64,000 bases of DNA from Psammoneis japonica (taxonomy: Eukaryota): assembly GCA_008632985.1 (NCBI GenBank), contig QPGO01000048.1:186001-250000 (forward strand), in the 5' to 3' direction. The position numbers and the translations under genes were made by a program. Numbering within the stretch: the stretch's first letter is position 1; each line of letters begins with the position of its first letter. Below the pieces are notes generated by a model. That model did not search any database and was not told the origin of the DNA. It saw nothing but the letters and a program-made list of their open reading frames with translations. Below are positions 3,901 to 64,000 of the stretch, piece after piece.

Positions 3901-4700
3901 TGATGAGCAAGGCAGTGATCATGATGACAAAGAAGGCTCTGGTTGGAAACAAAACAAAGCTGAGCTCAAGTGCTGCCACCTGCAGATGTGAACACATGGA
4001 ACTCTGGTGACAGTGCGCACACATGTGCAACCCTCATTGCTGCTGCTGCTGTTGGCACTTTTAAAGGTGAGGGGAAAGGGGAGTCTTGGTCATTCTTGTG
4101 ACAAACATGCACATTTAGTGCAACAAAACCTCAACAGTTTTGATTGCAACTTGTCTTGCACAACCAAGGGGTCATGACTGCCAATGAACAAGAAATCCAC
4201 AAGTGATGCTCTTGGACTTTTTTCTTAAGTCTGCTGATGATGAACCCAACATTTTTCCTTGTGATGCTGCAGCTGAAGGAGATGGAATGCGATGCCCGAT
4301 GCATGCCAACGGTCGCAGCACCCATCGCATCAATTGTGTGATGTGAATCAACAAATTACTCTCTTTAGAGCTCAATGGTGGAACCAGTTCAACGCTGGGA
4401 AACCTTGATGCAATGGGAAAGGAAGACAACGAAACGACATCACACAAGATCTCAGAGCATGAATCCCATGCACCAGAGCGGTGCCAATTTCCAAGCCATT
4501 CCGCACAGCCACCATGGGTGGCTTGTCGAAAAACACCTTCGCCACACTTGCCGAGTCGGCAACCGTGAGAAGAAGCAAAGTGGCAAAGACAAAAGGAAGA
4601 GTGGCGAGACTGAAGGTAATGGCAACAGCAAAGAGCATGCTAAAGTCGATGATTTATTGGCGCCAACGGGTCTTCCCCAAACGATTCGATCAGTCAAAGC
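1000..4700. repeat. TpA/CpG-depleted degenerate (probably transposon-derived) domain 1; family not identifiable
   Basis: Very few TA and CG in the core (~1430-4340) with excess TG/CA. The ORF track shows only short, overlapping, Tyr-poor, Cys/His/Gln-rich ORFs. Boundaries are approximate. Confidence 0.6.
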
Positions 4701-17300: not shown

Positions 17301-17989
17301 TGTCAAAGCATGAGGGAAGCTGCCAAATTTTGTTGTTGCAGCATGTTTTTTCTCTCCGGGGGGGGGGGGGGGGGGGGAGCAGTGGCTCAGCTTGCAATGA
17401 AAGGTGAGTGTGCATGCAAGCATTCATGCCAGCACTGTTTTGTGGCTCTGGTCAAAATGGTGTGCCAGCTTTGCAAGCTGAGGCTCATGAGAACATTGCA
17501 GCTCATCTGAGTGTGGGTGGTGCAAGAGCTCAAGGCACCTTGCTTCTCAATTGCCAACAGAAAGGAGCAGGCTTTCCTGGGGGGTCTTGCCCCTCAAATG
17601 CCCCAGAAGCCCATCACCAGGGCAAGGCTGCAGAAGTGACGTGCGGGGGCACTGGATGGACATTGTGACAAACAAATCACACTTTGCAATCAAGCAAATG
17701 GGCTGATGGCATGGCAGCCAAGTTCAAGAAGAAAAACAGAAAATGAGTTTTTCCACCCTCCTCACAAGAGGCATCATGAACAAGTTTGCTCCAACAGCGG
17801 CACAAGGGCCAACTTTTGAGGAGCAGCAGAAAAAGACACAAGCACGCAAGTGTCGCTGAGTGGGACTTGGTTGGCTGTGCATGCCTGCCTTTCAACAACA
17901 AAGATGAGAACAAGCATTTTCCCAGTTGCCAAAACAGCCAATTTTTTTCGTGGTGCTCTGCCAGGCATGTCACATGCCCCCCTGCTGTC

Positions 17990-18022
<33 letters not shown>

Positions 18023-21000: not shown

Positions 21001-22700
21001 GTGCAGCTGGCATTTGCTGTTGGTGTTTGCACAACATCTGCTGTGTTGCTCACACCCTTCTGATGATGTTCCTCCCAAAGTGAGCTGACACAAAATGGCA
21101 AGCTTCCCCATGTGGAACCTGTGGCGCCACACTTGTCAACAATGCATCAGGTGCCTCTCAATGCACACTGCTGCCAGCAAGTTCCAACTGTGCTTGAGCA
21201 ACAACTGGGTGTGTGTGCTTTTATGGCCACCAGCAAGCCCTCATGCAGCCTTGAACAACTTTCCACAACCACCTCTGTGCACTTTGTTTGCAGACATTTT
21301 TGACTTGCTGCACTCTTTGTTGAGGAGCTCTCTATTGCCAGTGCCTCTTTCTTCCCATTTTGGCTTGTTTTTGTCTTTTTGGCTGCTGCAAGGAATGACA
21401 GCACTGTGCCAAAAGCCATCTTCTGCCTGTGTGGCTTTTCTCTCCCTTTGTTTGTCTTTTGCATCATCAAGTGGTGTCTCCAATGTGCTGAGAACAAAAG
21501 CAGTGTGAGAAGATCAATTGTGTTGCAGGCTGAAGCAGCAAGAAATTCTGTTTTTGATGTTTTTTCTGGCTTGCTGTGTTTTGTTGCTTTTGCTGCTCTT
21601 TGACTGCTGTCTCTCTCTCTCTCCTTCTCTCTCTCACACACATTTTTAGACTTCTTGCTTGCTTTTGCATCTTGTGCACATGGAGGGGACTGTGCAGGGC
21701 AAGCTGCATTGGCTGGCTTCTGAGGTGTGTTGTTTGATTGCTGCAAAATGTCCCCTTGCACATTTTTCCAAGACTTGCTTTGTTTCTGCTCTTTGTTGGC
21801 TTGGGCATTTGATGCACAATGATGCTTCATCATCATCTTGGCATCTCAACTGGGCTTTGCTGCTTGCCGCAGCACCAGTTGAGAAGGCTGCACCTGCATG
21901 TCCACACATTGCCTCTTGCTGACACCCACTCTCTGGCGACTCTTGTCCAATGGCTTCAAATGAACTGACAATTTCTCAGGGACTTCCAATCTGTTGCCAG
22001 TCAAAACCTTTCTCTCAGCACAGTCTCAGTCAGACTCAACACCATGCTGCAGGCCACCACATGGCCAAAATTTGGTGTGCCGCAGGCTGTTCAAAACCCA
22101 ACATGACTTTGTCTTTGTCAGATGCATCATCTGCAGTCCCCCCCCCCCCCCCCCCCTCCACAAAAGCTCAGCCAGCTGCTGTGCTGGACAGCAGCATGCC
22201 GTGCAGCAGGCGGCTCACCCGCCCCTGGGGGTCTGCAATGAAAGACACCAGCAGGAGATCCAAACTCAGGCAGCCCAAGACACAATGGCAAAACACCATC
22301 ATGAGTGCAGCAGCTCTCACTGTGTTTGGGTGCACCCTTCGGTCAGACTTGGAGTTCTTGCCCAAACTTGTTTGGGGGCTCCCTTGTAAAAAAAAGTGGG
22401 TGGGTGCTCCACGGCAGCTGAGCTCATGCTGGAAGGAACTGGGCTCATCTGCCTTGAAACACTGCCTTCTGTTTCTTGCATGACAAGCATTGATGTGATG
22501 CTCGGAGTGCACCCAACAACAAGGACACATCTCTTCTGGGGGTTTGGGGGCATGGGGAAGAAGAGAGGAGCTGCTCTCACTGCGTTGTTGCTGTGTCTGC
22601 TCCTGTTGGGTTTTTGAGTGCCAGGTGTGCACAGGCTGTGTACACACAGAAATCACACATTCGAGAAACATTTGGTGGCACAGTGGAATCGTGCAATGAT
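14360..22700. repeat. TpA/CpG-depleted degenerate repeat/transposon domain 2 (~8.3 kb)
   Basis: By eye fewer than about 20 TA in 14640-22650, and CG also rare. No credible ORF. Contains a G-run (~17357-17377), (CTG)10 (~17991-18020) and a C-run (~22138-22156). Confidence 0.7.
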
Positions 22701-22978: not shown

Positions 22979-23791
22979 ATGAAGATTGCCGCTGCTTGTC
23001 TCTTGTTGTTGCCAGCCACCACTGCTTTCAGCGTGGTGGCGCCGATCTCGCGTCGGTCCGCCTCTTCACTCTGTGCTACGGCCGCGGCTAAGTCATACGA
23101 GGAGGATTTGGCTTTGACCATCAAAATCATCTTGGATCACCAGGACGTTCTGCGACGGCATCGAAGGATCAGTTTATCAGTCAAATGAGTGAAGCTGAGG
23201 AGATTGAGGAACCTCCGGAGCCAGTGGATCTCAGCATCCCATACGATGCAGCAGCGCGATTGGCCTACGAAGCTTCGGACAAAAAGATGGAGTACGACGC
23301 CTTCAAAACAAAGTTTGAAGCAGATGCTGTCGCCGACGTAATCGCCAAGCAACCGGTAGATGTGTCCATTCCTTATGATGCGCCCGCTCGACTTGCCTAT
23401 GAAGCCACTGATAAGAAGATGGACTATGCGGATTTCAAGGCTAAGTTCGAAGCCGATGCCGTCGCTGATGTCATTGCGAAGCAGCCAGTCGATGTCTCTA
23501 TTCCATATGATGCGCCCGCGCGACTCGCATATGAGGCGACCGACAAAAAGATGGATTACGCTGTCTTCAAAACCAAGTTTGAAGCCGATGCTGTCGCCGA
23601 CGTCGTTGCAAAGCAACCTGCTAAGGAAGAACAGCCCCAGCGCTGAACCTTCGTCCGACTTGTCCATCCCATATGATGCCGCGGCCAAGCTTGCATACGA
23701 GGCGAGCGATAAGTCCATGAAGTACGAAGATTTCAAGACCAAATTCGAGTCCGACGCAGTGGCCGACGTGATTGCCAAGCAGAACAAGTAG
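22979..23791 (+). CDS. Plastid-targeted protein with four 44-aa tandem repeats (DxSIPYDAxARLAYE...FKxKFEADAVADVIAKQ); two single-base frameshifts
   Basis: Signal peptide MKIAAACLLLLPATTA-FSV then a Ser/Arg-rich transit peptide. Repeat starts at ~23224, 23356, 23488, 23654. Frame shifts near 23145 and 23638. Confidence 0.8.
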
Positions 23792-40899: not shown

Positions 40900-42310
40900 T
40901 TGCACATGATGGGTGCATGACTGAATCCGTGGACTGAATCCTTGGATCGTCCTCGCCTGGAACTGCACACGGCAGAATCGCATGATCTTGTTGAGACACA
41001 ACATGCACCAGTTGATTTGTTGACGGTTCCCCTTGCGTTGACGGGCGCCATGGAACGATGGACAACTGCCAAGCACGAGAATTATGACAGACATGGACAC
41101 ATTTGGTTTGTGTCTGTGTAGGACTTGGAACTTCACCTGCTGCATCAAACAAGCGATGACTCAGAACTTCACCCACTGCATCTTACAACTGACCCAATTC
41201 ACCATGTGACTCAGATTGGGACACAAAGAATGTCCGACTCTTGAGATCTCACTTGCCCATGCTTGCACAAAAACTCTCTTGCAGCACCAATGTTCTGGAT
41301 GTGAAACAATTTTGGCTTCCACAACAACATTGTCTCACACATTTTTCATGCAAAATGCAAGCCTGAGTTTGAAAGTGATTTGTTGATTCTTGAACTCTTG
41401 GCCACAAATGTTCTGATGACATCCACCAATGTTCCAACAACAATCTTGGCTTCTGAAATGGCATCAACTCATCTTCTTTCAAAATGTGAGCCTGAGTTGT
41501 GCTGGCTGGGGTGAGAGAGTGGTGCAACAAGCACTGAATTCCCTTTTCCACACAGCCACAACTTCCAAATGCGAGCCTGAATTTGGCCTTTGTGACGAAG
41601 GTCTTCAAAGAGTCGTGGATAATCTGGTGAAAGCTTGAAGCAGTTCTCACAAACAGACTTGGCTTTCAAGAAATGGGAGCTGTGGAAGATTGTGTGAAGC
41701 CTGTGTGGGGGGGTTGTGTGACACACCTTGCTCTGTTGCACCAAAGATGGCACAATGCAGGCTGGCAAAGGGGGGGGCTCATGGCACCAGCAGCAGTGCC
41801 AAGGGTTTCCCAGCCAAAGAGAAAGGGTTGTGAAAGAATTGAAAGCAAAGATTAAGAGGCATCCATCAAGAGAAAGTGTCAACATCAAGCACCAGACACA
41901 AAGAAATCTGCGGGCATGTGTGCCTCAAAGAGAAATTGCCTGTTTTGACCATGCTGTCTCTCCAGAAAGGCAAAGATGGTGTTGGCACCACCCACAATGT
42001 GCAAGATTGGGTGATGAAGGGAGCTCAGGCTGCATGAACAACAGCGGGGTGGTTTTGGTGAGGTCGGAGGGAGATTTGGAAGTGGAAGCGATTTAGCTCG
42101 TGTGTCATTCAAATCATGACATTGCCCCTCGTGCCGTGCCTTAGCGGCGCCGCACCTCGAAATCATTGGCCCATTCGGGCGACGCCAGGAAACCAGCAAC
42201 CGAGAAGCGAGCCCGCAACCGACCCACTGCCCACGGCACGTTGCGATTTGCGATGAAGAAGAGCATGAAGACGCAAGACAAGCATCACGCAAGAAGCGCA
42301 ACAGCACAGC
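40900..42310. repeat. TpA-depleted degenerate domain 3
   Basis: Few TA and excess TG/CA. CG scarce in 41200-42000 but retained at both edges. No credible ORF. Confidence 0.55.
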
Positions 42311-43295: not shown

Positions 43296-45123
43296 TTACC
43301 CAATCTGACTAAATTCAACATCCGACTTGATAACCTCTTCTCCGCGTCGCATTGCTACTACGGTTGGTCGATACACAACAAAGTTAAACTCGTCGCTGAA
43401 AGCACCGGGATTCAGAGCGTCGCATTCCGCATAAGTTTCGTAGAACTGTTCGACCCGATCCCCTAGAATGACAGCATCTGGAAATGGATATAGACGGAGG
43501 GCATGGTCATACTGCCAATAAATGGGACACGATGACAGCGGTAGCGGGCACAAATGACTTTGATCCAAGATGGTCTTCACAGCGTGCTGCACAAACGCGT
43601 CACCATTGCCTGCATCACGCGGTTTCAAGATGCAATTTCGCCGTAGCTTATGAATTAGATTCTGACGAAAGAAAACAAGTTCCTTGGTGAAGTAACGGAT
43701 ACGACATGGGTTGGTGGTGAACAAGGCATTCTGCACCTTTGTGTGGATTGATCCTCGAAAGTAAGTCGGTATCGGTGGACGTGGAAGGATCTCTCCCGTC
43801 CCTGGATCGTTTGGACCTGGAACGAAGACAAAGCGTCCGTCATTGGCAAGACGAGGAAACTTGGAAATCAGGGTGGCAAGCTCGTCAAAGTATCCAATCA
43901 TGGTCTTGGTGCCGTCCCGAGCAGATGACATGGGCGTCGAAGAGAAGTTTCCCATAAAGACAAAGGCTGGAAGTGGATCTAGTTCATGGTATCCTTGAAA
44001 GAGTACTTCCAACTTTTCCATAACGCTGGGGTTGTCAAGATGGACGTCCGACAAAACCACAAACATCCCATCTGGACCATGTTTCAACTCTTGTTGACTC
44101 ATTTTTTCAATCTCAGACATGGAGGAGATGGATTGGAACAAATCACTGTTAAGTAGGCCAATAGCATCAATAGCCTCGGATCGCTTTTCGATGAGCGGGT
44201 TTCCCATTCGATGAACATGCAGAACCCCGTCCACCATTTCACCCTCCACTAACATGATGCAGTTCTCGGCAATGAATCCGTCCGTCAAGACTGACGTCTC
44301 GGAAAGGTCCATTGGTACCTGAGCTGTATGATCCTCGAGATAGTAACGCCCTTCTTCCACCTGGTGTTCCAGTCGGAATTCGGTACGTGAGGCGAGGCAC
44401 TGCAAAAACCGACTTTCCGTAGCACAAGAGAAATTGTGTGGTGGCCTTACCTGAACAATCATACCGAGCAAGAACTTGACGCCACTCACACCCAAAAGAC
44501 TTTCCAATGGAGTGATGGTATGGGTCACGCTTCTTCCGTCCCCAGATGCATGTCTCCCATCCGCTGTAACTAGTTTTGGGCAGAACAAGTCCTGTCTAAG
44601 AATTCGTTGCTGAATGAGCGAGTGTCGCTGTGCAAACATATCCGCCTAAATAGCAATAAAAAGAGGATCGTGAGGAAGCGTATCATACTTTGGAAGAAGA
44701 CTTTTATCGAAGAGCAACCCATTCACATACCTTGTCTGACGCTTCGCCAAACAGAGAACGGCGCTCCATATCCTTCGACACGAGTGTGAATTGCTTTCTG
44801 GTGTCGTCATAAGCAATCCGAGGCGTATCAAAGGCGTCAAGGAGCTGCAGTGCCTCATCTGCAACATCACTGTCACTACGACTCATCTCCGCCACGACAT
44901 CGGCCAACACCTTTTTGGTAACGAGAAACTGTTGACGAGACGACGCCAGCATTCGTTCGCGGATTTCGTCAACAATTGCTTCAAGCACTTGTTCGCCACG
45001 TTCTGGAGACTCGCGACTCAACACGTTCATCATTCCATCCAGAGCAGAGGCTTGAAGGGATAAACCCCTCAACTTGAAGGCTCGTGCAACCTTACGGCGG
45101 CTGTGATGAGACGACTCCGCCAT
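43296..45123 (-). CDS. POLE2: DNA polymerase epsilon subunit 2 (Dpb2), multi-exon
   Basis: AFKLRGLSL N-terminal domain; FVVLSDVHLD, FVFMGNF, FVFVPGPNDPG, TNPCRIRYFTKELVFFR, QSHLCPLP, YDHALRLYPFPD. Introns near 44645-44730 and 44362-44450. Confidence 0.95.
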
Positions 45124-47355: not shown

Positions 47356-48609
47356 TCATTGATTAGCCGGTAAGGGATGATATAGCTTCCGAATGTCCTT
47401 AACAAATTGCTTTGCGCCCTTAACGCCGACTTTTGACGCCAGGACGATGGGGACAGATGGCGAATGAACGTGCGTTACCGCTGTTAAGAGGCTTGCATCG
47501 GGATCGCCATTGGGTGCGGGTTGAATTAAGTTAACCCCCAGCAAAATCTCGTTGCGAGTCAAAGATTCTTCTGCTTCGGTTGGTCCGCCCCACGTATCTC
47601 CTCCGACCGCCCTACTCACAACTAGATATCCACCACCCTCAACCCCATCGTCCAGGCGAAGGGGGCGAGCATGCATCATCGTCACGAATTCCATTTTCTG
47701 TTTGGTAAGAGGGGGCTTGGTAAGGTTTCGTACAATCTTGGTCTCGCCGTCCCCAAAGTCCCCTCCAGTTGAATCCAACCCCTCTTGCATGACGTGGATG
47801 TCTGTGCGACCTAGGCTCATGTGGTTGTACTTTTGAACACGTGACGAATCCATCAAGAGTTCTGCTAGCTCTTGTGGTGATAGTGGAAGGATAGAGCGTG
47901 TCTTTACTACCGGGAGCTGAGAACCATACCCCTCTTTATGAAATTTTCCCAGATATGCCAGTATTTCTCCATTGTCCAGTGCTTCTGCTTTATCCATTTC
48001 ACTCCCCACGGACGCAGTGCGCTTGTCAGCTGGTTCCCAGTCAACCCACTGGTTATTCGAATGCTCCATAGCAACATCTACACAAGTCGAGGAGAACAAG
48101 TTGAGCGCTTGGGGTTCGTCGAACTCACGTCCTGTCAATTGATTCCAAACATCGGTAGGTATCAACGGCTTTGCAATGCCCTCCAAGAGTTCATTTGGTG
48201 GTATTTTTCCTATGGTTTCCGCTGAGTCAGTCTGTGGTGATGTAGGCGAAGAGAGAAATGATGAGTCTGAGGCTTGTGTTTTTGCTTGTCTGCGAAAAGA
48301 TCGCAGGGTATACATTTGCTTGCTTGCCCTGGTAGTGCCTAGCCGCCCTGATATTGTGAGTTCCTCCACTGGTGAAGCCCAACTAGATATGTCAAGATCA
48401 TCATTAGTGGTCTCTGCCGGCTTCCCTTCGTCTTCTGGAATAATTTTCACTGTCAGATCATTTGCTAGATCGAGAGAAACTCGTGCGAAAGTGACATGAT
48501 CTCTAGAACCATCCATTCCAGAGCTGCGACTTGGCGAAACAGTCCAAAGAGCACTCCCTGTACGACAAAAGAAGATAAATGGTATGCACTTGAACTGCGG
48601 TCGCATCAT
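47356..48609 (-). CDS. START/SRPBCC-like lipid-binding domain protein
   Basis: LSPQELAELLMDSSRVQKYN, TKIVRNLTKPP, EFVTMMHAR, GYLVVSRAV, NEILLGVNLI, LTAVTHVHSP pattern. Start taken at MMRPQF. Confidence 0.68.
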   Translation of the reverse strand: MMRPQFKCIPFIFFCRTGSALWTVSPSRSSGMDGSRDHVTFARVSLDLANDLTVKIIPEDEGKPAETTNDDLDISSWASPVEELTISGRLGTTRASKQMYTLRSFRRQAKTQASDSSFLSSPTSPQTDSAETIGKIPPNELLEGIAKPLIPTDVWNQLTGREFDEPQALNLFSSTCVDVAMEHSNNQWVDWEPADKRTASVGSEMDKAEALDNGEILAYLGKFHKEGYGSQLPVVKTRSILPLSPQELAELLMDSSRVQKYNHMSLGRTDIHVMQEGLDSTGGDFGDGETKIVRNLTKPPLTKQKMEFVTMMHARPLRLDDGVEGGGYLVVSRAVGGDTWGGPTEAEESLTRNEILLGVNLIQPAPNGDPDASLLTAVTHVHSPSVPIVLASKVGVKGAKQFVKDIRKLYHPLPANQ

Positions 48610-49528
48610 GATATCTTCCAGGTCTGTTATCCGTGCGAAGGACAAAAGGTGTTGCCGTAAAGAATAGTGATTGTTCGGAACCGATTGCAAAGCTTTTCTA
48701 ACAGTACTACAGGCGAGGTTAGGAAGCGAAGGATTGCTCGTTGCAACTGTTGCAGTGATTTCCAGGTTGCTTTGCGTCCAATAAAAACGACACCATGGCC
48801 TTCCGCCTTTATTTCGCGCAAAGCATGCCCGAACCCCGAACCCCGCACCCCGCCCGAACCAACAACAATGAGCCGCGCAGCTTCCGCAACAGAGTGGCAT
48901 TTGACGGCGTGAGAACCCTGACAGCACAATGACAACATTGTTCGATCGATCGTGCTCTTTCTCATGATGACGTGTCAACATTCAGATGGCCTCCAATGTG
49001 GCTGGCTGTGCTGTGGCGATGAACTGCACGAAACCAAACAACGCCATTTTGTTTGGGCCGGGGCGAGAAGCACGAGAGCCATGATGGTGACATCACAATT
49101 GCCAAATGGGTTGGGAATTCTGCCAAGGTCATTCGCACTCAGTCATGTCTGCTGTTTTGTGAAAAGGAGCCCATGCTGGAAGAAGTTTGCTGCAAGTTTT
49201 TTGCACCAGCAGCCTTTCTGCAAACAAGAGAAGCGGGTTGCAGAGAGGCTCGAAGATGCAGCGATGGCAAACAAACAGTCACTCAGTTGCTTCAAGCTGT
49301 TGAAGCAATGCATGCACTGAGCTGGATTTGGCACTGCTGGATTTGGTGTTGCTGGATTTGGGTGAAGAAGGAGTGTGATGTCTGGCTGAACAATTCCCGA
49401 AAATCATGACGCGGCAGCAGAAGATGTGTGCTCCTCAACGTGATGACAGAGCAGAGCAGGAGACAAGGCTGACAAAGGACAAACTTTGGGCTTTGCTGCA
49501 ATTTTTTGAATTGGACAAGAACAACATC

Positions 49529-49766
49529 AGCTGAGATGCAGTCCTGCAGCGTGGCAGGGTGGATGTGACCTCAGAGGTTGGCAGCAACGTCAGCGGCAAC
49601 AGAGCAAGCAAACAGACGCTTTGTTCAAAGTCGTTGTCTGGAAATCACGACGAAAGTTCGTTGTTGTTTTTGAATCGGATTGTGAGTTCAGCTGAACAAA
49701 TCAATGAAAAGAGCTGAGTTTGGGATGCAGTCGTGACGTGCAACCAAATGACATTAAGTCGTGACT
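49529..49766 (-). repeat. 3' LTR of the copia element
   Basis: Aligns to 55396-55611. Immediately preceded on the minus strand by the polypurine tract GAGAGGGAG (plus 49767-49775). Confidence 0.9.
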
Positions 49767-52700
49767 CTCCCTCTCAACCGAGAGAGCGCACCAGCCTGTG
49801 AGAGCCTTTCCAGCTGTGCGGAGCGCATCGGTCTGTGGTCCCTTCGTGAGCTGATCGGCCAGTTGCTCTAGAGTGCTGACAGGTTGAATGTTGATCTCCA
49901 ATTGTTTGACATCAGTCCAAAACCAGTGGTGTGGGACACTGATGTGCTTGGTTCATGGAGACAACTTGGGCATGTGATGTGTGCAAACTTGAGGCATGCG
50001 GAGTTGTCTTCGCACACAACGGACACAGGTGGGACATTCTGCTCACAAAAGCACTTCAGAGACTGCTTGAGACCATGCAGTCCTTTCAGCAACCTGAGAA
50101 CCATGTTGAGTCCTGATTTTGGTGTGAAACCTTTGGGTGGTGACATGCAGACTTTCTTTGGCAACATCTGCTTGGCAAAAGGCTGCAGCACAGTCTGCTT
50201 GACATGCTTTCCATCCTTCTTTCAATGCTGCAGTGAGCATGAGTTGGATGCTGGACCACTGCACTGCCGGCGCATGGGCTTCAAAATGATCCACACCTTC
50301 TTTCTGCAGATCTCCTTGGACACAGCACCGGGCCTCACATTTCAATGGCGTTCCGTCTGGTGACCTTTTGAGCTTAAAAGCCCATGCACTGGGGAGCACA
50401 TTCATCTTCAGAGTGCATTTAACTGCTTTCCAGGCACGATGGTGGATGAGTGCATTCACTTCAATTTTCATTGCCTTGATCCACTTTTCTGCATCTGGGC
50501 CCTTCAGAGCATTGTGCAATGAAGGCATGTGGGGGTTCTTGGCATTCTTGGTTGCCGCATGAGCCCTGGGATCACCAATGTTGCATGTGCCAGCATCCAC
50601 ATTGGTCTTGAGAGTTGCCAGATGAGCTGGTTGAGCTTGGTGTCCAATTGGCACCTCTTCTTCCTTGATGGAGCTAAGGCAGACTTTGTCTGTAAACTTG
50701 GTAGAATGGAGCTGTCCTTTGGTTGACCTGGAAGACCATTGCAGCCCCAATTCTCCCTCTGAATTTGTCACAGGAGGCGCTTCAACTGGAGCAGGTGCTG
50801 TTGGTTTGGAAGGTGCTTCAGGTGGCAGAAGTTCATTGCTTTCCTGAGGTGGAGGTGCCTGAATTGGCACAGGCTCTACAGAGTCTGCACTGTCTTTAGT
50901 TGCAGGTGGGGCTGGAGGCACAGGCATTGCAGTCATGGGCGTGACTCGATTTGATGCATCTTCGAAAGGAACAACTGGATCCGGCGCAGATGTTGATGGA
51001 TTTGGTTGGAAGTTGCCTCAAACACGAGTCTCTCTGGCCAGTTCTTGTTCCTCACATTGGCGTTCAGAAGGAGCGAGCCACTCATTGTTCAGATGGACAG
51101 TCTGATCTTTCTCCAATGGGATGAGAATGGACTGGTTGAGACAGAGTTGCTCCCAGTGGTCGGGTGCATCCGTCTCCCTCTCGATCAATGGTGCGGCAGA
51201 GAATTGATTGTCAAAAACCACATGATGCTGAGGAGCAACGCTTCCAGTTTGTAAATTGAGGACCAGGGGTGCCTCACTTGAGTGGCTTGCACTCAAACCA
51301 ACAAAAAGAGCATGGTGAGTGCGAGGTTGCCATCAAAAGGCAGTTTCTTCCTGGGTGCAAGGACCGGGTCAAGGACATGCGCTGGACAACCCCACACACG
51401 AATGTCTTGCAACCAATGTCGAGGCACCATGGAGCTGGTGAAAATGTCTGCTGGGCAATGCCCTTTGTTGGCATTGGGGGTGATGTTGTAGATGTGCACA
51501 GCATGAGAAACAGCCATGGGCCATGGTGAGCTGTTGACCCCCCCTTCCAGTGGATTGATGCATGAAGTGTCACACGCTTGTTTTGCTTGAATCGTCTCCA
51601 CAGCAGAGAAACCCAGTTGATGTTTGACATGGAGGCAGCCGGAGGTGTGGTTGACAAAGATGCACCCTCCCTTGAATTGCTTGAATGTGGCTTTGCTGCA
51701 TGAGTCAAAGGTTTGGCCAAGCAGGCGCAACTCAAAATGATCAATGCTGACAGCCTGAACCAGTCGTTTTTGGTCAGCTTGGAGGGCCCCATCACGTTCA
51801 GGGACTGTCTTCTTGTGGGTGGAGCCCAGAGATTGTCTGTGACCTTTGGCATGTTTGCATGCTTTGCATCTTGGGTGGTCACACTTCGCCGCTGCCTTGA
51901 ACCAATTTGACAAGAAAGGAACCACGCAAAGAAGGGCTTGTGTGCAACCAAAGTTCAAATGACCAAATCTGGAGTGCATGTTCACTGAAAGTTTCTGACC
52001 CGCTGTCAGATTCTGATTTTCCTTGTTCAGGATAATTGGGTTCACTTGAGGAGCCTCAGATGCGCCCTTGATCATTGACACAACAGGCAAGTGGCTTGGT
52101 TGATGATGCGGCATGCCCAACTTGCCTGCTCCGTCAATGCACAACTTGAAACTGTGCTTGTCCCCCTCATGCTTCCCATGCACACCTTTCTCTTTGTCAA
52201 AGAGGCATTGAGGTGACAGCAGGCATTGACGGGCTCCAGGGAGGATGTGGCATGCCACAGTGTTCAATTGGGTGGTGGCACTGCTTGGTGTTGTGAAAAC
52301 CCATGCAACCAGGCCAGCACCTTGTGTGGTGAGACCATTTGCTGTCCCATTGATCTGCAAGGGTTTCTTGGGAATGGTCACAGGGCCAGCAAAATTGGCT
52401 TCATTGGGAGCAACAGCTAGCATGACACCAGCATCCATCACTGCAGCCAGAGTCTTGTCCAACAGACCAATGAGCGCCTGCGGATCGGATGCTGACAGCT
52501 TGGCTTGAGATGCTCCGGCAAGCAACTGAATGGTTGATGTGTTGCAGACAATTGCTCCAACACATGCTTCTTCCAACAGAGCAAAAGGATCTTGAGAACG
52601 AGTGGCATCCATGACGTGATGAGGGATGCAAAGTTCGTCGAACTGAAAGAAGTCTGGACTGAACTGCTTGAGAGCGTCAAAGAAGCATTTCTGCTCGTCG

Positions 52701-55383
52701 AGAGGTTCCAATTCCTTGCAGGCATCAAAGAAGGTTGATTCATCAATCGAATCTGACTGTTCAACTGGACGGCGCATGACAAACTTGGCGAGCACTTGCA
52801 CGCCCTTGATCTTGTTGCATTCGAACAGTGAGCAGGCATCCAACACAATCCAGTCATCTGACTCCTCCACAATGTGGTGGACTTGAGAGCCAGCTGTCGA
52901 AAATTGGCTTGATGCGTTTGTGAACGGATGCTTGGGCTGTTGACAGGCACAAACTGCTGACCACACCACAACTGCAACAGACAGGACCATCCAGGAGGCC
53001 GGAAACCCGTGCAAGGTTGAGAGTTTGTGCTGGCAACACAGAGCTTGAGGGATGCTTGGGATTGGAGCAAAGCAGACATGTGGCACCATTGCCCAAAACA
53101 TGGCGGCGAGCCAGAACACGAAGAGCTTGACTCATCCCAAAATTGATCAACGCAAAGAGGTCTCTTCTTTGTCGTGCTTGTGACAATCATCCACACCCAG
53201 GTTCTCTGGATCATAAAAATCAAAGCCACAATGTGCAACACATGGAGGCAAGTCATCACATGCATCTTCAAAGTGTGGTTCATGTTCAAGAAGGAGCGGA
53301 GATCCAACTTGGCATCATCTGACAGCATGTCCATCAGGTTGACAGGAGCATCACAGAACTCATCTGGGTGCTTGTCAGAGTGCAGCTTCAAGGCCGGGAA
53401 CAACTCAACAACTGGTGGTTGGTTCTCAAACGCAGAGAGAGCATCAGCACATTCGCAGAAGTCATTGGTGTCCTCAGGAGTGATGGTCTCAACCACGATT
53501 GGAGACACATTTGGGCCCACAACTGAGTGAGTGTTTTGTGAGCTCAATTCCATGCATGCTTTGTCAAAGCTGACTTCCTTGTTGTTGTCTCTCCCTCTTG
53601 GCCAAAGGTGCTGGAGCAACAAATGCTGTTGCAGCAACAGGGGCAGTGAGGAAATCTGGGTTGGCAACAGCATCTGTGGCCGCGCACCACATCCCTGTGA
53701 AAACCAACACGTTTGGGTTGGATTTGTCTCCCTCTGGTTCCTTGGCAGTCTGAGCTGGCAGACCCATGGGCACACTGCCATCTGGATCAGAGACTTGGGA
53801 CAAAGTGCTTGCTGGGGTTTCCTGGGTGGGGTGCTTGAAGTTCTCCTTGTGCTCTGCAGTGGAGTGACGTTTGGCAGATGCCCAGCTTGTTGGCTCCCTT
53901 TGCCATGCATGTGGCACACCACTTCCATTCCTTGCCATTCTCACCCGTGGTCATCTCCCCATTAAACTTGGTGCGCCATGCAGTGATTTGTTGCTGCTTC
54001 TTCTTGGAAGGGTCATCTCTGCAGGTGGTGGATTTGGAGGAGGATCACCACGTGGCAGTGGCGGGTTACACTTTGGGCACATCTTCTTGGTGCACCCCTC
54101 AAGACCACAACTAAAACAGTGCGCCATCTTCCCAGGGTCATCCGTGGATGAAAGGTTGCTCTCGGGCAGCTTGGCAACCAATGCAGGCCACTCACTGTCC
54201 TTCACCACAAGCTCGTTGTGCTGCTCTTGGATCCATGCAATGATGCCGACCGGTCCGAGTGTGTTGCAGTCTCTGTCAGTCTTGATTGCAGCGGGATCCT
54301 GCCTTGAGCCTGTGCTTGCATTCCATCTTCTTCACATTGTCAATCTTGTTGTGGATGACCCGATTGAAGCAATCAGAAGACGTGCTGGATGCCTTGTGGA
54401 GCAGCTTGGAGCCAGTGTTTGTTGGAAGCACGCAGTTGGTCTGCATCACCTTCACAATGCAAAGTGCTTCAGTGGCGAAGTCCATGCAATCCTTGCTGGC
54501 ACAGGCAGCCAAACTGAGATCCTCTGGCTCCTTCTTTGCTGTCTCAACATCCGTTAGAGTGCCAGCATTGCAAGCATCAAGTGCCATCATGAATGGAGTT
54601 GACCCAGGAGGGCAGTCTTGGAAGTCCTTGAGATGGTTGAACTTGGTTTCGATTTTCTTGCAAAAGGTGTTCGAGATTCTAGAGTGTGCCAGAAGCTGAG
54701 AGAGATGTCATCAAGCTTGATCTCATCGTAGCATGTGTCATCCCCAGCCACGTTCCTGGTGTTGTGCTCATTCACAAGATTGGTCACGGTGAAATCATGG
54801 AGATGATCAAAAAGACATGGAACCTTGCTGTTGCTGTTCTTGACATGGCAGAAAGTCTGCTGGCCGTGGGCTTCAACTGGGTCTCAAACAGTCTTGACGA
54901 AATGGTCCTTGTCAAGCTCGTTGATGGGACCGTTTGAAATCTCAAGTCAACTGTTGAACTTGGAAGTCATTGTGGAAGTTTGTTGATCTCGGAGGGATCA
55001 TTCTGTCGAGTCGAGAGCCTTGGGATGACGGTGCTGCAAGGCAAATTGGCAGGTTCTTGATGAGGTTTGGGTGCAGGCATTGTTGAGTTTGGAGCCACCA
55101 ATGCAGACCCTGTGGGTCTGGTGAATTCCACCGCGCAACGGCATGGTTTGAGTTGGAGGAGCGTTCTTGGTGGCATTTGCAGCCATTGCATTGGCAAACG
55201 CCTTTGCCAGGACATCCAAATTGACAGCAGTTGTGGTGGAGAGTGCAGTGGGGAAGGTTCTTGATGGCATGAAGACAAGAGAAGCAAGTGAGTCTCAGCT
55301 GTTTCCTGGGTTTGCTTCAAAATCAAAACAGAAAGTGTCTGTGATGATGACTCAGTCAGGAGCTCTCGTCAATGCACAAGCTT

Positions 55384-55395
55384 GGGCTCACAACC
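55384..55395 (-). promoter_or_regulatory. Primer-binding site complementary to the anticodon arm of initiator tRNA-Met (half-tRNA priming), one TA->TG change
   Basis: Minus strand GGTTGTGAGCCC versus expected GGTTATGAGCCC (compare Drosophila copia GGTTATGGGCCC). Confidence 0.8.
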
Positions 55396-55611
55396 AGTCA
55401 AGATGCAGTCCCGCAGCTTGGCAGGGTGGGTGAGACCTCAGAGGTTGGCAGCAACATGAACAGCAACAGAGCAAACAGATGCTTTGTTCAAAGTCGTTGT
55501 CCAAAAATCACGACAAAGTTCAGATTGTGAGTTCAGCTGAACAAATCGATGAAAAGAGCTGAGTCTGGGATGCAGTCATGACATGCAACCAAATGATGTT
55601 GAGTCGTGACT
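55396..55611 (-). repeat. 5' LTR of the copia element
   Basis: Aligns to 49529-49766. Terminal inverted repeat AGTCA...TGACT. Followed directly by the PBS. Confidence 0.9.
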
Positions 55612-56734
55612 GCATCTCTGGGCTCCTCAAAACAGTCAGAGTCACAACAGCAAATTTTTGGCAGAGCAAGAGCTTTTCTTGACCCAGCCACATGCTGTCC
55701 AAAATGTCAACAACAGCCGTTTCTCACAAAGCTTGTGCCAGCTCAACAGATTTTGGTGGTTCTGAGAACAGATGGGAGAACAAAGGACACCAATTTCTTG
55801 CAAGGCAACTGAGTGTAAAGCTTTGCCAGTTGTTTTGTGCATGTGAACAAGATCCACCAGTCACTGTGTGCCAGTGGAGCGAGCGGGACAACTGCACTCA
55901 TGATTTGTGTTTGCAGCTGTGTTTGTGCTGCATGCCAGCTCAATGCTCAGTGGGCATTGGTTCTTCACATGGACATGACATGAACCTCTTCCAGCTTTGA
56001 GCTGTGATTTGCCAATTGGTTTGGAAAATGAAAATGAAAACCTTGGCAGTGCCCACATGTTGGCTGAACTTGGACATGCACGGCCCAGAAAGCTGTTCCC
56101 AAATTGCCAACAGGGAAAAGTGCCAAGAGGCTCAGTGTTGATGTGAGCCTCATCTTTGCTCAAAAACCTGTGTGGTGCATTTCTTGACAAGTGCAATGGC
56201 ATCCCTTCATGAGGGCAACACATGTGGAGGTGAGCAAATGTTTGTGTGCCTGCCTCCCAGCCGGCCATCACATCTGAGTGGTGCCCCATGTCAGCAGATT
56301 GAATGTCATCAGCACATGTCAGATTGAGGCTTTCTGCTGTCATGTGGCTTTCAAAATGCATCAACAGATTTTAAAGCTTTCTGACATCATGCAACCCATG
56401 TGACACATGTTGTCATTCTAAAAACATTGTTCACAAGTCCTCACCATCTTTGAATCATCCAAGTTAATTGTGCGCTGGAAAGCTGTTGTTCATTGCTGTG
56501 ACAGTCTTGTTCTTGGTGGCCACAAGTTGATGATGTCATGTTGCACTCATCAAGACATGCACAGCTCCCAATGCTGCACAAACAACAACAGCACTTTTTT
56601 CAAAGTTTGTGCTCTTGTTGTTTGATGACCATGAACCAAACTTGGAGCTGCAGTCTTGATGTTCTGCCTCATCTCCTGTCCCAGTGGGCTTGCTGGGCTT
56701 GCAGCAGTCACAACAGCCACAGCAGACCAATTGA

Positions 56735-57295
56735 GATGCTGGACCCCAATCTGCATCCCTTCAGCATGACAGCAAAAAGAGCAAAAAATGTTTCCATGAT
56801 GACAGAACAAAAGGAACAAACTCACAATGTGAACAGCACTTGTGCTGGCATTTTCAGCCTTGCTGCACAGTCATTCTTTCAGCACAGCTGCTCAAGGAGT
56901 GGGGGCTGTTTTAATGAAGACATGACAACAACAAACACAGAGTGTGAGCAGTGCTTGCAGCAGCTTCCTCAGTCCATTTGGATGACACTTTCTTGCTTGA
57001 TTGGCCTTTTGATCCTCTTGTGCATCCTTCCAGCACAACAACTTAAGAGACAAGAAACATTTCAACAATGACAAAAAAAGCAAAACCCACAACATGAACA
57101 TTGCTTCCATCAGCATTTTTGGCTCCTTGTGCTGCCCCTTTCAACAACTCATTCAATTGGTTGGCCCTTTGATTCTCTTGTGCACTCTTTCAGCATGACA
57201 GCACAAGGAGCAAAAAATGTTTCAATGACAACAAAAAACAACAACAGCAAAACTTGCAATGTGAGCAGTGCTTGCATTGGCATTTTCAGCTCCTT
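56735..57295 (+). repeat. Degenerate tandem array, ~140-160 bp unit
   Basis: ttcagcatgacagca...gagcaaaaaatgttt...ggcattttcagc at ~56760-56858 and ~57189-57289, with partial copies near 56880 and 57000-57120. Confidence 0.65.
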
Positions 57296-57499
57296 CATTT
57301 TCACAAAGACAAAACAACACATCAACAAACATGCAATGTGTGGGCAGCACTCATGCCCGGCAATTCATTCTTGTTGTCTTTGGGTTGAGACTGCTTGAGA
57401 CACAACTGCATCTCCTTTTTGCTTCATTGACATTGCCGAGTGATTGGGGGAGCCTTGCTGCAGCATCAAGATGCGCGCCATTCTGGTTGTTCTGATTTT

Positions 57500-60400
57500 C
57501 TTGCAGAACTGCCATCAAGGAGCACATTTGTCCCACCCTTTTTTGTGTGTGCATCCACAACACCTCCTGTCAAAATGACTTCAAGCTGTCAATGACTGAC
57601 TTGGCATTTGAAATGATGACATCTGTTTTTGTCTTGTTTGCACATCCAAACTGCACACCACTGCCCTTCTCCATCTCCAAATCATCCACCAGCACCATGG
57701 CATCATTGTGTCATTGTCAATGCTGCTCTCTTTGAAGACATTCTCTGTTGTTGCACATGCTGCCATTGCAGGCTCCAAGCGGGCAAGATTTTGTGCAATG
57801 CTCTGCATGGCCACCTCCAACATGTCCCACAATGCCCACCAGGATGTCACCAAATTTGCCTCATGGTGCCATGCCCATGTTGCAACACTGCTTGCAAATG
57901 TTGTCTTGGATTTCCAAATGGCTCACTTGTGTCCTTTCTCTTCCATTTGTCATCCATCTCCTTCACAGTCTTTTCATGCTGCATCTTCTGCTTGGCTGCC
58001 ATGGCCCGGGCTTCTGGAAAACCTGTGGGGGACTGTTCCCTTCCAGAAAACTCTGCTGCCTTCTTTGTCAGCTCCCCAGGATCCTTGAGAGGTTTTGCTG
58101 CAGAGCTTGAAAGACAACCTGGCTCAGAAAACAAGTTCATGTGCAGGTTCACCCAGCCACTCCTGTGCTGCTGTCAAGATGAGAAAGTGTTGGTTGTGCA
58201 TGGGGTTGAAGCACCACCTGTTTGGTGAGCCACATTCAACACATCTGTCACAATCTGTTGCAAGCCTTTGACAACCTGTGCAATGAACCTCCCAGTGAAG
58301 ATCATTTTCTTGACCATGCTCACTCTGCTTGGGTGTGCAAGATCAAGGCCACCCCACAAGTGGTGCCAAACAAACCCTGCTTCACATTCACAGGTGAACA
58401 TTTGTTTGACAATTGCCCTCTTCTGAACAGCAATCCCTGCATCAAGAGGGGCTTCACATCTGCTTCTGTCAATTTCTGAAGCACGAAGCAATGGTCCAAG
58501 CATCTCAATTCATGAGGAAGCAAGGTCTTGTTCTTTCATCTGCCAATGAGGAAACTGTGAGTCCATCCACACCAGCAACAGACCTCTGGATTTTTAGCAG
58601 AGCCATCACAGCCAGTTTTGGAACTGTGGTGCTGCCCACTCTCTTCTCACTGAGACCACAAAACACATGCTGGCAGGGTGATTGTGAAAGAGGGGCTCCC
58701 AGTCTCATTGACTTCTGCTGAAATGCCTCTTTCTTCATCAAGTGACACCTTCAGCACCAGTCAAGACCTCACCCTTTCATCATCTCCTGATGCAACTGCA
58801 CTGCCTGATGATGATCTGACCATGCCATGCATCAATCAGGGGAGGGCACAGATGAACCTCAAGTCACTCCAGTTTGGAGCACAAAGGCAAAACTCTGCAG
58901 CAACGTCATGCACATCCACAGGCATGTGCCGGTGGTTGAACCCAGCATGGCATCTCATGCCCCATGAATCAGCACACAAATCCTCAATGCTCTCACTTGC
59001 AAGAGAAAGGCAAGCAAGCTGTGGTGCTGACACAGACTGCACAGGAGAGTGCAACAATGAGCACTTGGAGTGAAAAGCTGGACACCTGCATTGTTTCCGT
59101 CAATGGCAAACATGTTTTTGCCCAGGAAGAAGTGACAGATCAACTTCAAGGAGTTTGCAATCATGGCAGGGTGCATTTTGACATTGAAGTTGTGAGCTGT
59201 GATGAGGAGTGTGGGTTGAGCACAATTTGGTTTGCTCCCCCCTCCCTCTGACACTGATGAGCACCACATTCAGGAGCTCACTCAGGTGGATGTTTGCGCC
59301 ATCATGGAGATCCGACACCCTGACACTGATTTTTCAGCTCTTGACTGACCCACCAATTTTGCACCATTGAATGTTTGTCATGAAAATGGCATGGTGAATT
59401 TATTTGCCATCTCTTCTCATGTGCTGTTGCTCCAGAAGAATGTGTGCTGGATGCCTTCAGACATGGCTCTTCACTCAATGAGCTTGACATGATGCCAGAA
59501 TGACATGCTGGCGAGGTCAAGCAACTCATTCAGCATGATGAACTTGACATGTTTGGCATGCCCATCAAGTGGCCAAAGGGCACCACAATTTTGTGTCCAC
59601 ATTGGCAGCATCACCTCCAGCAGGATGGCACTCAACAGCAGTCATGCAAATGCTGCAATTGCTCTCCTTGAGCTCACCTGCCTTCCATGCACTCATCTTG
59701 TGTGGAACAACCCATCTGATGGATGTTTTTTGCTCTTGCAACAATGACAAGCTGCAGCATTTGCAACGGTGACACTCAAGTTGCACGCGCGCACCTCCTG
59801 AGCCCCTCCAATCCCCAGCTTGTGTTGCTGTTGATGATGCATGTGCTGCTTGTCACAAGTCTCACTTTTGGAGTTGACCCAGACCACTCTTTGGTCTTGC
59901 CAATGCTGCAAGCACTTTAAAGACAACCCAAAGCTGGCATGCTGTGGGAGAAACATGGCAACAAGATGCTCGTGGATGCCAAGCTCTTGTTTTGCAACAC
60001 CGCTCACAACCCACAACAAATGTGCATTCATTCTGCAACCTGCAAAAGGAAGAAGATTCTGCTCTTGCACACCAGGTTGATGACTTCTCCACTGCATCTC
60101 CAGTGGAAGCTCTTGTGGCAAAGATTTTTGACACTGTTGGTCAAGCTTTGCAATTGCCTGGCAAAGCCATGCTGCCTTTCAAGTGTTTTGGGTCTGTTGC
60201 ACTGAATTTGATGGTGTGGACATGCACCAGCCAACATGATCATTTGATCAGTGTTGCTTGTCACAGCTGTGTCAATTGGGTTTTGTGGCAATGCACAGTT
60301 GGGAGACACCAGCTGTGGATGAACCAACATCAGAATCCATTCCTGGCAGATTCAGTGTCTAAGTTGCACTCTGAAGTTGGTTGCCTTGAAGGCACTCCAG

Positions 60401-61000
60401 AGCAGGATGAACTTGCACAGGTCTCCAGCTTCAGCTGTTGCACCCAGCTTGGCAAGTTGTTGTGCACACATGCCCCATGTTGTCTTGACATCAGATTTGC
60501 CATTGCCACCCGCTGTCTCCAAGTTTGCCTCAGCTCTGGCTTCTGCTGCACATTGCTCTGCGTTGAAAGGTGGAGCAAAACATTTGCACTGAACCAAGAT
60601 GTGGAAAATCAACCACAAGAAGCCAATGCAGCAAAGTGGAGCCAATCACCACCTCCATGACCCCACGAACATCTTTGCCAAAGACCCTGCTTTGCCAACA
60701 TTCCCACCTTGGATTGTTCCTGTCAGCTGCTTGCCTTCTTGGGTGTGGCCTGTGGAAATGATTTGTGCAATTGCTGGTCTGCTGAAAAGCATGGATGCAC
60801 ATTGGTGGGTGCCGTGACATTGCTTTTCAATGCAAGACCCAGTCCATGACTGACAATTTTGTGCTGTTGGCAATGCTGTCAAGCATGCTCTGCATCTGCA
60901 CCATGTTCTTTGCAAGTTGGAGGGCCCTTGGGAGGGGCCCATCCTGTTTTTTGTTGTTGACAATGAATCTGCACCCAAGATTCTCAACAACCGCACCCCT
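57500..61000 (+). mobile_element. Second, older Ty1/copia remnant (RT with QVDD motif), heavily mutated
   Basis: 59700-60700 translates as VLPMLQAL, GMLWEKH, ILLL/HQVDDF, LQLPG..PFKC.G, EGTPEQ, FSCCTQLGKLLC...DIRFAIAT, a recognisable CoDi RT with Y->C/H and R->C/H/Q. Outer limits uncertain. Confidence 0.72.
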
Positions 61001-61851
61001 CTGCTGAGTGCTCATGACACACTGACATTCAATTTTTTGCAACCCAGGATTGGAAAGAGGCCAGCAAGATTGCCACATGACATGTTCCTGGTGTTGTCAA
61101 CCCAAGCCATGACTTCACCAAGGCTTTGGGGTGGGCACTGCATGCCAGGCATGCATGCCAAATGATGGGATTACGCCGCTGTTGAGACATTTTGTTCATG
61201 ACTGTGGTGCCTCTGCAATGTTGCCCTTTGTTGTTTTGTGTTTTTGGTTTGACATCATTTTTGTCATTTGGTCTGATTGCATGTCATCATCTTCATGTGA
61301 CCTGCAGTGTCTTGAGCCAAACATTGCAGATGAGGGATGAGTGGTGTCAGCACCTCTCACCCCCAGGTGTGTGCACTGCATGTGTTCAGATGGTCCACAT
61401 CCATGGACAGCAGGTTATGTTGGACCTCATTTACACAGCACTGTACAGGCAGATGTTGCGTTGGCTGAACAGGCCTCAATGTGACATTCCAGCCCCATTG
61501 GTGGGGCATCTCGAAACAGTGTAACAAGAAAGGCAGTTGCAGTTCACAAGGCACAGACTAACGATGATTTTGATTTGAAGGTTGAGCTACAAAAGCACCT
61601 CGAGACACAAAAGAGAGAGCTGACGAAGCAGTAAGAGAGGAGGTTGGCAAGGTTGTGGGTGGCACAAAGGGGAACAACATTGGACTATGTCAGTGGGTCT
61701 CCCAATAAAGCTTTTTTTTATTGAAGAAGAGCCAAACATATTTGACTATGTCCAACTCATGTTATCTACATCTTTAGCTAGCCCTAAGTACCAATTGCTG
61801 CACAAAGCACCTCGACAAAAGGAAATTGAACCTTAACCTACACTTCATGTT

Positions 61852-64000
61852 CTATTTTTTCACAAGCTTGTACATTCCGTCTGGGCCGCATTCGATCTTC
61901 TCTTGTTTGCACAGCTGCTTAAGAAAAACGGTCAACTGGTGTGGTGTCTTATTGTACTTGTGGTCTGAACCTGCCACAAATGTTTTGAGGTTGTTGTGAA
62001 TGCGATCCAACGGGAGTTGCTCTAACCGATTGAGCATGCCGATAATGTACGACTCGTAAATCTCCATTTCTTCTTCTTCCTGAGCGCCAGCTGAGACTGC
62101 TTGCCCCACAGAACCATCTTCCTCATCCATTGCACTGCCCAGTTCGTGCTTAGAATACCAATGATCCCTCGATCCAAGTGCGTAATGAACAGTACCAACC
62201 AACGCAGAATCCGTAGCTTTGATCACACGGTTGCTCACCCAGTAGTTCATCCGCCGTTGGATGATGTGCTCGGCAATGCCGGTTTCATTGGAAAGCTCTT
62301 GCGAAGTCCATTCATCCTTGTCTTCGAAATGGGAAATAAGAGTCGCCAAGAGCGGTGAGCACGAGAATTCTCGCGTTTCTACCACGGAACGTCCATCGGG
62401 TCCTTCCTCGACGACGTCGAGTTCCAATTGGACCGAACCCAACTGATTGAGCCAAACCAGCTTTCTTGGACTCTTAAGTTTCCCATACTCAAGACCAAAC
62501 TGATCCAATCCACTTTGAATCCGTGGGTGATGCTTGAGTTGCTCCTTCTGAAGCGCTGGCCAGAAAATATGGGAAATGATGATCGAATCCACCGGGAGCT
62601 CCTTGTCTGACTTCTGCTTTGCTTTGAGAGTGGAACGTATGTTGGAAACGATTCGTTTGGAGTCATCCGTATCCTTGATCATGATTTCACATTGGCGCAT
62701 ACTCATTTCACCAAATCGTAGCTTCAGCAGTTCCAATGTGTGAACCTCTCTATCCGTGTCGAAATCAAGGTTGGCTATGAGCTTATCGGCCAGCATCAGC
62801 CGATACTCATTTACGAACAGCTCCTTGCTTCCGTAAATGCTTACTAACATTGAGAGAATATCACCTCCACCTCCATGAGAACAGCGAGAATCACCCCTAT
62901 GTTTTAACAAGGAAGGAGCAGGCTTCCAATCAAAGGGAGGCGGTTCTCCCTCATCATCGGAATCCAACTCTACTTGTTCCAAGGGACGAGCATCCTGCCG
63001 CCGAAGTTCGTCGTAAAGAGTATCCCCAGCCTCTTCGTCCGTCAGGCTTGTGATGATACATCGAACTGTGTCACTGCGACCGCGTAGATATGATCGAACG
63101 GGTTGCGCCACCTTTTCAAGCAAGCGATCGGAGGGATCGATCTCACGCAGAACCTTTATTGTGTTGATATACACATCAATAATCTGTGACGTGTTGGCTC
63201 CGGGATGTAGTAAACGACGCATTAGGCTGTCTCGGAGGGCGTTACCCAATTGCTCATTCATTCTCGTTCTTTCCATCACTCGCCCAAGTTCCGTAATTGC
63301 ATTCACGGAATTGGGATAGTCAACCACGATATTAAAAATTTCTTCAATTCTCACGAGACAGAAGCATTCTGCGACACGATAGTCCAGCTGATCATGCCAA
63401 TTGTCTACTTTGTACGCATCAATTCCAACCAAGTCCTGCACCCATGGATCCTTTGCAACGAACACACACAAATTGAGGTCGAGCGAGTGTGGGTGAGTGT
63501 GTTGAAAAAGCTGCTATTTGGGGCATACTCTTTGGACTTACCACGACTTCATTCTTCCATTCCTCGACTGAAGCATACAACGAATCATCTTCGAATTCAC
63601 CTTGAATCTTTCCCCTCACATGCGATAGAATGGCTTCGTGCAAGGTCTCAAACAGAGGGCGAAGAAGCTTTCCGTCCTGTCCCATCCAGCCCAGAGTACG
63701 TAGACTCTGGTAAACCGAGTCCTCGTCGTCCAGCGGTTCTTCTTCCCTCTCTTCCTCCATTTCTTCATCGCTGTCATCAAACTTTGTCTGACGAGTTCGA
63801 AGCGTTGCACGAAAAAGAGGTCTGAAAGAATTTACAAAGCCTGGTGGAGCTGCTAAGAAAACTGCAGCGCTAATGGCTAAACGACGAGACTCGTCCGTTG
63901 AATATTCCGCAACACCAGTGCCATCCGCATTCTAGAGAAAACAAAACAATGGTTTAGAGCAGCATCAGTCACCCCGCAGCAACGTTGTCTTTAAATTTCA
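61852..64000 (-). CDS. ANAPC2: Anaphase-promoting complex subunit 2 (cullin-like), 5' end outside the window
   Basis: RRLLHPGANTSQIIDVYINTIKVLREIDPS, YLRGRSDTVRCII, LVSIYGSKELFVNEYRLMLADKL, LELLKLRFGE, C-terminal winged helix YIIGML...LDRIHNNLK. Confidence 0.94.

Follow-up and report, generated by a model that had tools for sequence, protein, structure and literature searches.

The closest described counterpart of the mutation process considered here is found in Bigelowiella natans, a rhizarian alga in which integrated NCLDV and virophage DNA is hypermutated at TpA (Mettrop et al., bioRxiv 10.64898/2026.01.13.699255, 2026 preprint). According to the main text of that preprint, the changes are A>G and T>C at TpA only, yielding TpG and CpA; the target is chromosomal DNA, in foreign or mobile domains only, and these domains are depleted of TpA and have an excess of TpG and CpA. 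The rate per generation is reported to be raised about 1000-fold, in some lines only, and an ADAT2-type deaminase is put forward as a proposal. The words "diatom", "stramenopile" and "LTR" occur nowhere in the text of the preprint, which links transposons to the process by Pfam enrichment only.

Several other systems share some of these features. RIP of ascomycetes is also an in-place hypermutation of repeats that affects both strands and serves genome defence. RIP makes TpA from CpA, opposite in direction and chemistry to a loss of TpA. Editing of retroelements by ADAR and APOBEC takes place before integration, and its signature is on one strand. To our knowledge, no natural enzyme has been established as deaminating adenine across genomic DNA for defence. 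TadA-derived base editors, which are engineered, are described as leaving A>G and T>C at TA in DNA (PMC13225742) and as favouring UACG in RNA (PMC8052359). Concerning the elements themselves, 23/26 of the CoDi Ty1/copia families of diatoms are listed with TG/CA termini and 3/26 without (Maumus et al. 2009, PMC2806351).

Here we compare with these systems a Ty1/copia element in a diatom-like stramenopile genome, found in a 64,000-nt stretch of DNA that was analysed as a whole (the window). Of the homologs of the neighbouring host gene, the two that are named with an organism come from diatoms. Similarly to B. natans, the A:T>G:C changes are restricted to TpA, affect integrated chromosomal DNA on both strands and are confined to mobile domains. 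Unlike in B. natans, the targets are LTR retrotransposons and not viral inserts, TA loss is near saturation (TA O/E 0.03-0.05 in the repeats, against 0.49-0.56 in neighbouring genes) and is accompanied by CpG decay. There is also a preference for a pyrimidine after the A (TAY), which the main text of the preprint, figure 2B and the supplements aside, does not contain. Literature searches covering listings and abstract starts returned no paper on a TpA process in diatoms, and a term search of a 2025 diatom transposon preprint (10.1101/2025.10.24.684338) gave no TpA, RIP, hypermut or deamin. As far as these searches went, B. natans is the only other alga for which a TpA mutator was found described.

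The copia element and its target-site duplication

The element occupies positions 49529-55611 on the minus strand (6083 nt, Table 1). It has a direct LTR pair with a primer-binding site (PBS) and a polypurine tract (PPT), and RVT_2 lies downstream of the integrase region, the integrase side being represented by the weak PF13976 match. The PBS may resemble the half-tRNA-iMet PBS of copia and Ty5. Canonical TG...CA termini, usual but not universal in Ty1/copia elements, are absent, and the ends read AGT...ACT. The element is thus similar to the CoDi elements in its copia reverse transcriptase, LTR pair, 5-bp target-site duplication (TSD) and diatom host, and differs from 23 of the 26 families in the termini that are the source of the junction TpAs discussed below.

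Table 1. Positions of the element, its duplication and the surrounding repeat in the window
Feature	Position	Strand	Remarks
TSD, left copy, ACATC	49524..49528	+	first A preceded by A, no TpA; unchanged
TSD, right copy, GCATC	55612..55616	+	changed base is G55612
Junction dinucleotide (LTR terminal T and first TSD base)	55611..55612	+	now TG; probably TA at insertion; context C-T-A-C
5' LTR	55396..55611	-	216 nt; AGT...ACT in element sense
3' LTR	49529..49766	-	238 nt; ends ...AGCT (family ...GACT or ...AACT)
Primer-binding site	55384..55395	-	GGTTGTGAGCCC; directly behind 5' LTR
Polypurine tract	49767..49779	-	GGTTGAGAGGGAG; directly before 3' LTR
Decayed pol frame, Ty1/copia reverse transcriptase	50043..51017	-	PF07727 RVT_2, E 7.5e-12
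Decayed pol frame upstream of reverse transcriptase	51293..53131	-	weak GAG-pre-integrase match PF13976, E 0.007, below cut-off
Host repeat, left part, and domain edge	48812..49523		older repeat entered by the element; 0 TA in 48812-49528
Host repeat, right part, and further relics	55617..61400		

On the left the letters read ...GAACA ACATC, followed by AGCTGAG, and on the right GTCGTGACT, ending in the terminal LTR T at 55611, followed by GCATC TCTGG. The LTR limits are fixed independently of the TSD, because the purine tract abuts 49766 and the PBS abuts 55396. Inner LTR ends in the family begin with A in 39/39 cases on the PPT side and end with T in 36/36 cases on the PBS side. Shifted LTR limits or a 4-bp TSD are ruled out by the PBS and PPT positions and the family ends, and by inspection of the LTR alignment no shifted boundary gave a better duplication.

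Short-read contigs, possibly from the source sample, span 47500-49637 and 55562-57500, and each differs from the window at one other letter (by depth, 49551 and 56121). Both TSD copies read in them as in the window; these are readings of the same sample and not independent biology. They rule out an assembly error at the TSD. The preliminary description of this DNA had read ACATC after an A on the left and GCATC after the terminal T of the LTR on the right, and both readings were confirmed in the window letters and in the short-read contigs. At 49551, 50384, 53623 and 56121 every covering short-read contig gives another letter, so these are probably assembly errors of the window; correcting 49551 takes away one apparent transversion between the LTRs.

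The element sits in a 12.6-kb domain (about 48812-61400) that is almost without TA. TA O/E is 0.054 in the element and 0.028 in its right flank, CG is low too, and TG and CA are high; over 55612-61400 the values are 0.03 for TA and 0.10 for CG. The host of the element is an older repeat, paralogs of which are uninterrupted at the insertion point. In 18 host-like flanks TA loss has spread only weakly, with 33 TA counted in the nearest 75 nt vs 44-70 in later bins. TA is gone from 48812-49100, at the domain edge close to where the host gene 47356-48981 starts, and CG is intact there (23 CG in 48801-49100), which is TA loss without CpG loss. The nearby host genes for a DNA polymerase epsilon subunit B (43296-44645) and for an APC2 subunit (61852-63513) have a normal TA content.

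Junctions across the family

Elements with AGT...ACT termini create a new TpA on insertion if the last base of the TSD is T or its first base is A. At the window locus, the element would have inserted with a 5-bp duplication of ACATC, and the terminal T of its LTR would have been joined to the A of the right copy to give such a TpA. Later, a mutator of chromosomal DNA acting in transposon-rich domains would have turned that A:T pair into G:C. We consider a post-integration change at TpA by a chromosomal mutator to be very probably the best explanation of the mismatch. In the preliminary description it was warned that a single site could be due to chance, and indeed one site is weak evidence and the family is needed.

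Copies of the family were located by one DNA search and two patterns, the pattern counts standing for at least that many copies. Besides the window copy 40 stretches were fetched, and about ten further single-LTR matches were not included as whole elements. Before the TSD count 11/41 stretches were left out: L056, L057 and L062 (a shared odd 3' flank without TSD), L060 (contig end), and L063-L066 and L068-L070 (one LTR only). Both outer ends could be scored in 30 insertions, namely 28 two-LTR copies, one solo LTR and the window copy; the 3' end of L043 was placed by re-alignment. The test covers one family, with AGT...ACT termini.

The 5-bp TSD holds for the family, as the pairs are identical in 20/30 insertions and carry one to three mismatches in 10/30, at 13 positions in total. 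Twelve of these positions fit TA>TG or TA>CA, the exception being CG/CA. Under context-free transitions a TpA-compatible mismatch is expected at 64/200 (0.32), and the concentration of mismatches at TpA proposed in the preliminary description is therefore borne out in the 30 insertions of this family (p=1.1e-5). Junctions with a TpA in either TSD copy were changed in 13/23 cases (7 CA, 6 TG; 4 of the 13 on the less favoured strand) and all others in 0/37 (p=2e-7), a classing that is partly circular for changes on the TSD side. For this reason the terminal base of the LTR, the original state of which is known from 75/75 intact inner ends, was scored as well. In this non-circular test it was changed at 6/16 TpA-forming junctions vs 0/44 others (p=1.6e-4).

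Some copies deserve separate mention. L056, L057 and L062 (on C154, C201 and C375) have one sequence in common behind an altered 3' LTR end and differ in their 5' flanks, which is perhaps a variant with extra 3' DNA or the result of recombination. L046 (C51:395770-403315) carries three LTRs, with about 300 nt between the first and the second. The same LTR-flank junction is found on several contigs or twice on one (L003/L006/L008/L009/L012; L011 and L022; L063 and L064), and we read these cases as duplicated segments or haplotigs.

Signature, timing and direction of the changes

At 171/203 TA-type sites of the family TA, TG and CA are all present, which identifies TA as the ancestral state. The A of TA is changed at about 0.3 per A and other transitions run at 0.003-0.010. 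Sense/antisense change rates are 0.45/0.41 for TAC, 0.42/0.42 for TAT, 0.22/0.17 for TAA and 0.25/0.16 for TAG, so that a pyrimidine after the A raises its change frequency about twofold; at asymmetric sites the pyrimidine-bearing strand is favoured in 107/119. The C-T-A-C junction of the window copy offers this favoured context on the plus strand. Strand-coordinated runs were not found, the adjacent same-strand fraction being 0.511 vs 0.512 when permuted, and no sign of processive or strand-coordinated action was seen. In the LTRs of 21 young copies 322/544 TA-site calls (59%) are changed vs 40/500 CpG calls (8%), from which our own arithmetic gives a TA loss about tenfold faster than CpG decay. 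The change is thus specific for TpA, prefers a following pyrimidine, affects both strands in place after insertion and accumulates with age site by site. Here TpA is the substrate, not the product as in RIP, the change is other than C>T at CpA, and the strand-coordinated rounds of RIP are absent.

In silenced chromatin, TpA might carry a modified base, such as a modified adenine or oxidised thymine, that mispairs or is repaired to G:C. This would explain the domain restriction, the clock-like unclustered accumulation and the strand symmetry as well as a deaminase does, and we regard it as unlikely but the strongest of the alternatives. The TAY preference matches TadA-type enzymes, and known eukaryotic 6mA is at ApT, not at TpA; both count against it.

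A route by error-prone repair after integration, in which deamination of 5mC in methylated repeats sets off mismatch repair with polymerase eta, appears improbable. It would account for the loss of TA and CpG in the same domains and its correlation across copies, and changes of A:T pairs at WA hotspots are described for the polymerase (PMC6423074). WA includes AA, yet AA>AG is found at only 0.007 per site (102/14094), so that AA is not mutated along with TA. Moreover, TA loss outpaces the CpG decay by which the repair would be set off, strand-coordinated tracts are absent, and the domain edge at 48812-49100 has lost its TA with CG intact.

The next possibility is that the TA changes were made before integration, in RNA (ADAR-like) or in cDNA (APOBEC-like), the TSD mismatches being separate noise. 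The raw sense-strand excess (TG 1518 vs CA 1014) and the agreement of the window LTRs at 9/10 informative family TA sites speak for it. The interior, LTR-concordance and strand tests cover the 21 young copies, to which the older window copy does not belong. Any pre-integration change should appear in both LTRs of the resulting copy. Identical changes in the LTR pair of a copy were counted 58 times vs 63 +/- 4.7 when permuted between different copies, and this lack of excess concordance speaks against an origin in RNA or cDNA. The sense excess disappears in matched context (35 vs 34 sites in symmetric contexts), same-strand runs are absent, and both TG and CA outcomes are found in every copy. 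Host bases, which were never in the RNA, change at the interior rate: junction TpAs are changed in 9/18 cases, with 9.9 expected. The one-strand signature common to both LTRs that ADAR or APOBEC editing would leave is thus absent, and no RNA or cDNA share of the TA changes was detectable in the concordance and strand tests of the young copies. Editing before integration as the main route is refuted for these copies, and as a general account of the TA changes we consider it very improbable.

TA loss per copy ranges from 35 to 81% and increases with CpG loss (rho 0.82), as would be expected from a continuing process. No two copies have clearly more changes in common than site bias explains (highest z 2.2 over all pairs). 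From the family evidence we conclude with high confidence that the mutator acts on chromosomal DNA after insertion. The preliminary description had drawn this conclusion from the TSD mismatch, and it is supported by the family junctions, the independence of the LTRs and the strand tests. The mismatch itself does show that some changes occur after integration; the exclusion of element RNA and cDNA, which was also read from it, needs the LTR-concordance and strand-symmetry tests of the young copies.

The window copy is old, its nearest copy lying at a transversion distance of about 6%. Its LTR pair is noisier, with 23 mismatched columns comprising three TG/CA doublets, one TA/CA, eight CpG-type changes, three transversions and five others. 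Part of its TA loss may be inherited, the parent element having itself been mutated in the chromosome, or the nine agreeing sites were not TA in its lineage.

That the site was originally GCATC and the left copy underwent an ordinary G>A unrelated to the TpA mutator is also highly unlikely. In favour of this are the age of the copy, with five transitions between its LTRs that are neither TpA nor CpG, and the allelic empty site, which was not found in flank and contig searches: genome searches with both flanks gave only paralogs, the exact empty junction was not among the 15 joints listed in contigs from three runs of one sample (in which flank depth resembles that of the neighbouring gene), and no RNA data set was listed for it. 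Against it, a G in the left copy would be non-CpG, with a background transition of about 0.012 vs about 0.76 for a junction TpA changing as seen, given that 96% of the family TA sites are lost in this copy, a ratio of about 65. The matching position is A in the paralogous empty copies L072, L073/L074 and L076 and in two contig joints, in an alignment that is not unique (GACGTC, GATGTC or GATGTT vs AACATC in the window). The C/T mismatch of the window copy recurs, at an identical TSD position, in four other insertions (L034, L035, L043 and L046). An A>G change in the right copy, as first claimed, is therefore favoured at about 65:1 over background, which is suggestive, although a single site cannot set the direction alone. 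The window target (49520-49528 / 55612-55622) is 5 nt longer than in all empty paralogs seen, with three extra bases left of the TSD and two right, possibly from slippage or an older footprint.

The relation of diatom DNMT4 enzymes to RID (PMC9998398) might suggest a fungal-type RIP read backwards, with TG or CA ancestral and TA as the product, but this reading is refuted, as one step from TA explains the three states at the 171 sites, TA declines with age, and the terminal A of the LTR, invariant in the 39 inner ends, is replaced by G only where T precedes it.

Candidate enzymes and implications

The post-integration TpA mutator could work by adenine deamination, A being converted to inosine and read as G. 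The A>G change with a 5' T preference resembles that of the TadA-derived editors, which favour UAC(G), and a candidate would be a TadA/ADAT-like enzyme directed to chromatin that is silenced and CpG-methylated. We give this deaminase step an even chance. It might serve genome defence, since it would destroy Tyr codons and thereby the element. As for guidance, we infer chromatin rather than homology. Somewhat more tentatively still, diatoms may have a natural DNA adenine editor, a chromatin-guided T-A-pyrimidine deaminase that continually rewrites silenced transposons at about ten times the pace of methyl-CpG decay. If so, an A>G counterpart of RIP would be common to distant SAR lineages.

A profile search limited to PF14437 and PF02137 gave five and four matches, respectively. 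They include the tRNA-deaminase-like frames L082 and L086, as expected in any eukaryote. No unusual deaminase was seen among these matches, and the four PF14437 frames scanned look like housekeeping enzymes. In the frame L085:316-1791 a nucleobase deaminase domain is combined with a 2OG-Fe(II) dioxygenase domain. Two properties of the signature, its TAY preference and the unclustered changes, limit the range of enzymes to be considered.

The mismatch in the window TSD is a small footprint of a real, little-known mutator, and the family junction test makes the post-integration claim firm. Such a test does not depend on the enzyme and distinguishes mutation in place from editing of RNA or cDNA. 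Through it, the process described for viral inserts of a rhizarian is extended to the retrotransposons of a diatom-like genome. Because junction TpAs arise at insertion, AGT...ACT elements may carry a built-in clock. The LTR divergence of the young copies (3-9%) consists mostly of TA changes; in genomes of this kind LTR-divergence dating, TSD-based element finders and transposon annotation will be misled.

Elsewhere in the window there are three further domains in which TA and CG have been lost (1001-4600, 14800-22600 and 41000-42000), with sharp edges against host genes. A unit in four degenerate copies, spaced 115-167 nt apart, lies at 56750-57290 within the TA-depleted domain. Outside the depleted domains, a 132-nt coding-like repeat is present three times in tandem at 23221-23618.
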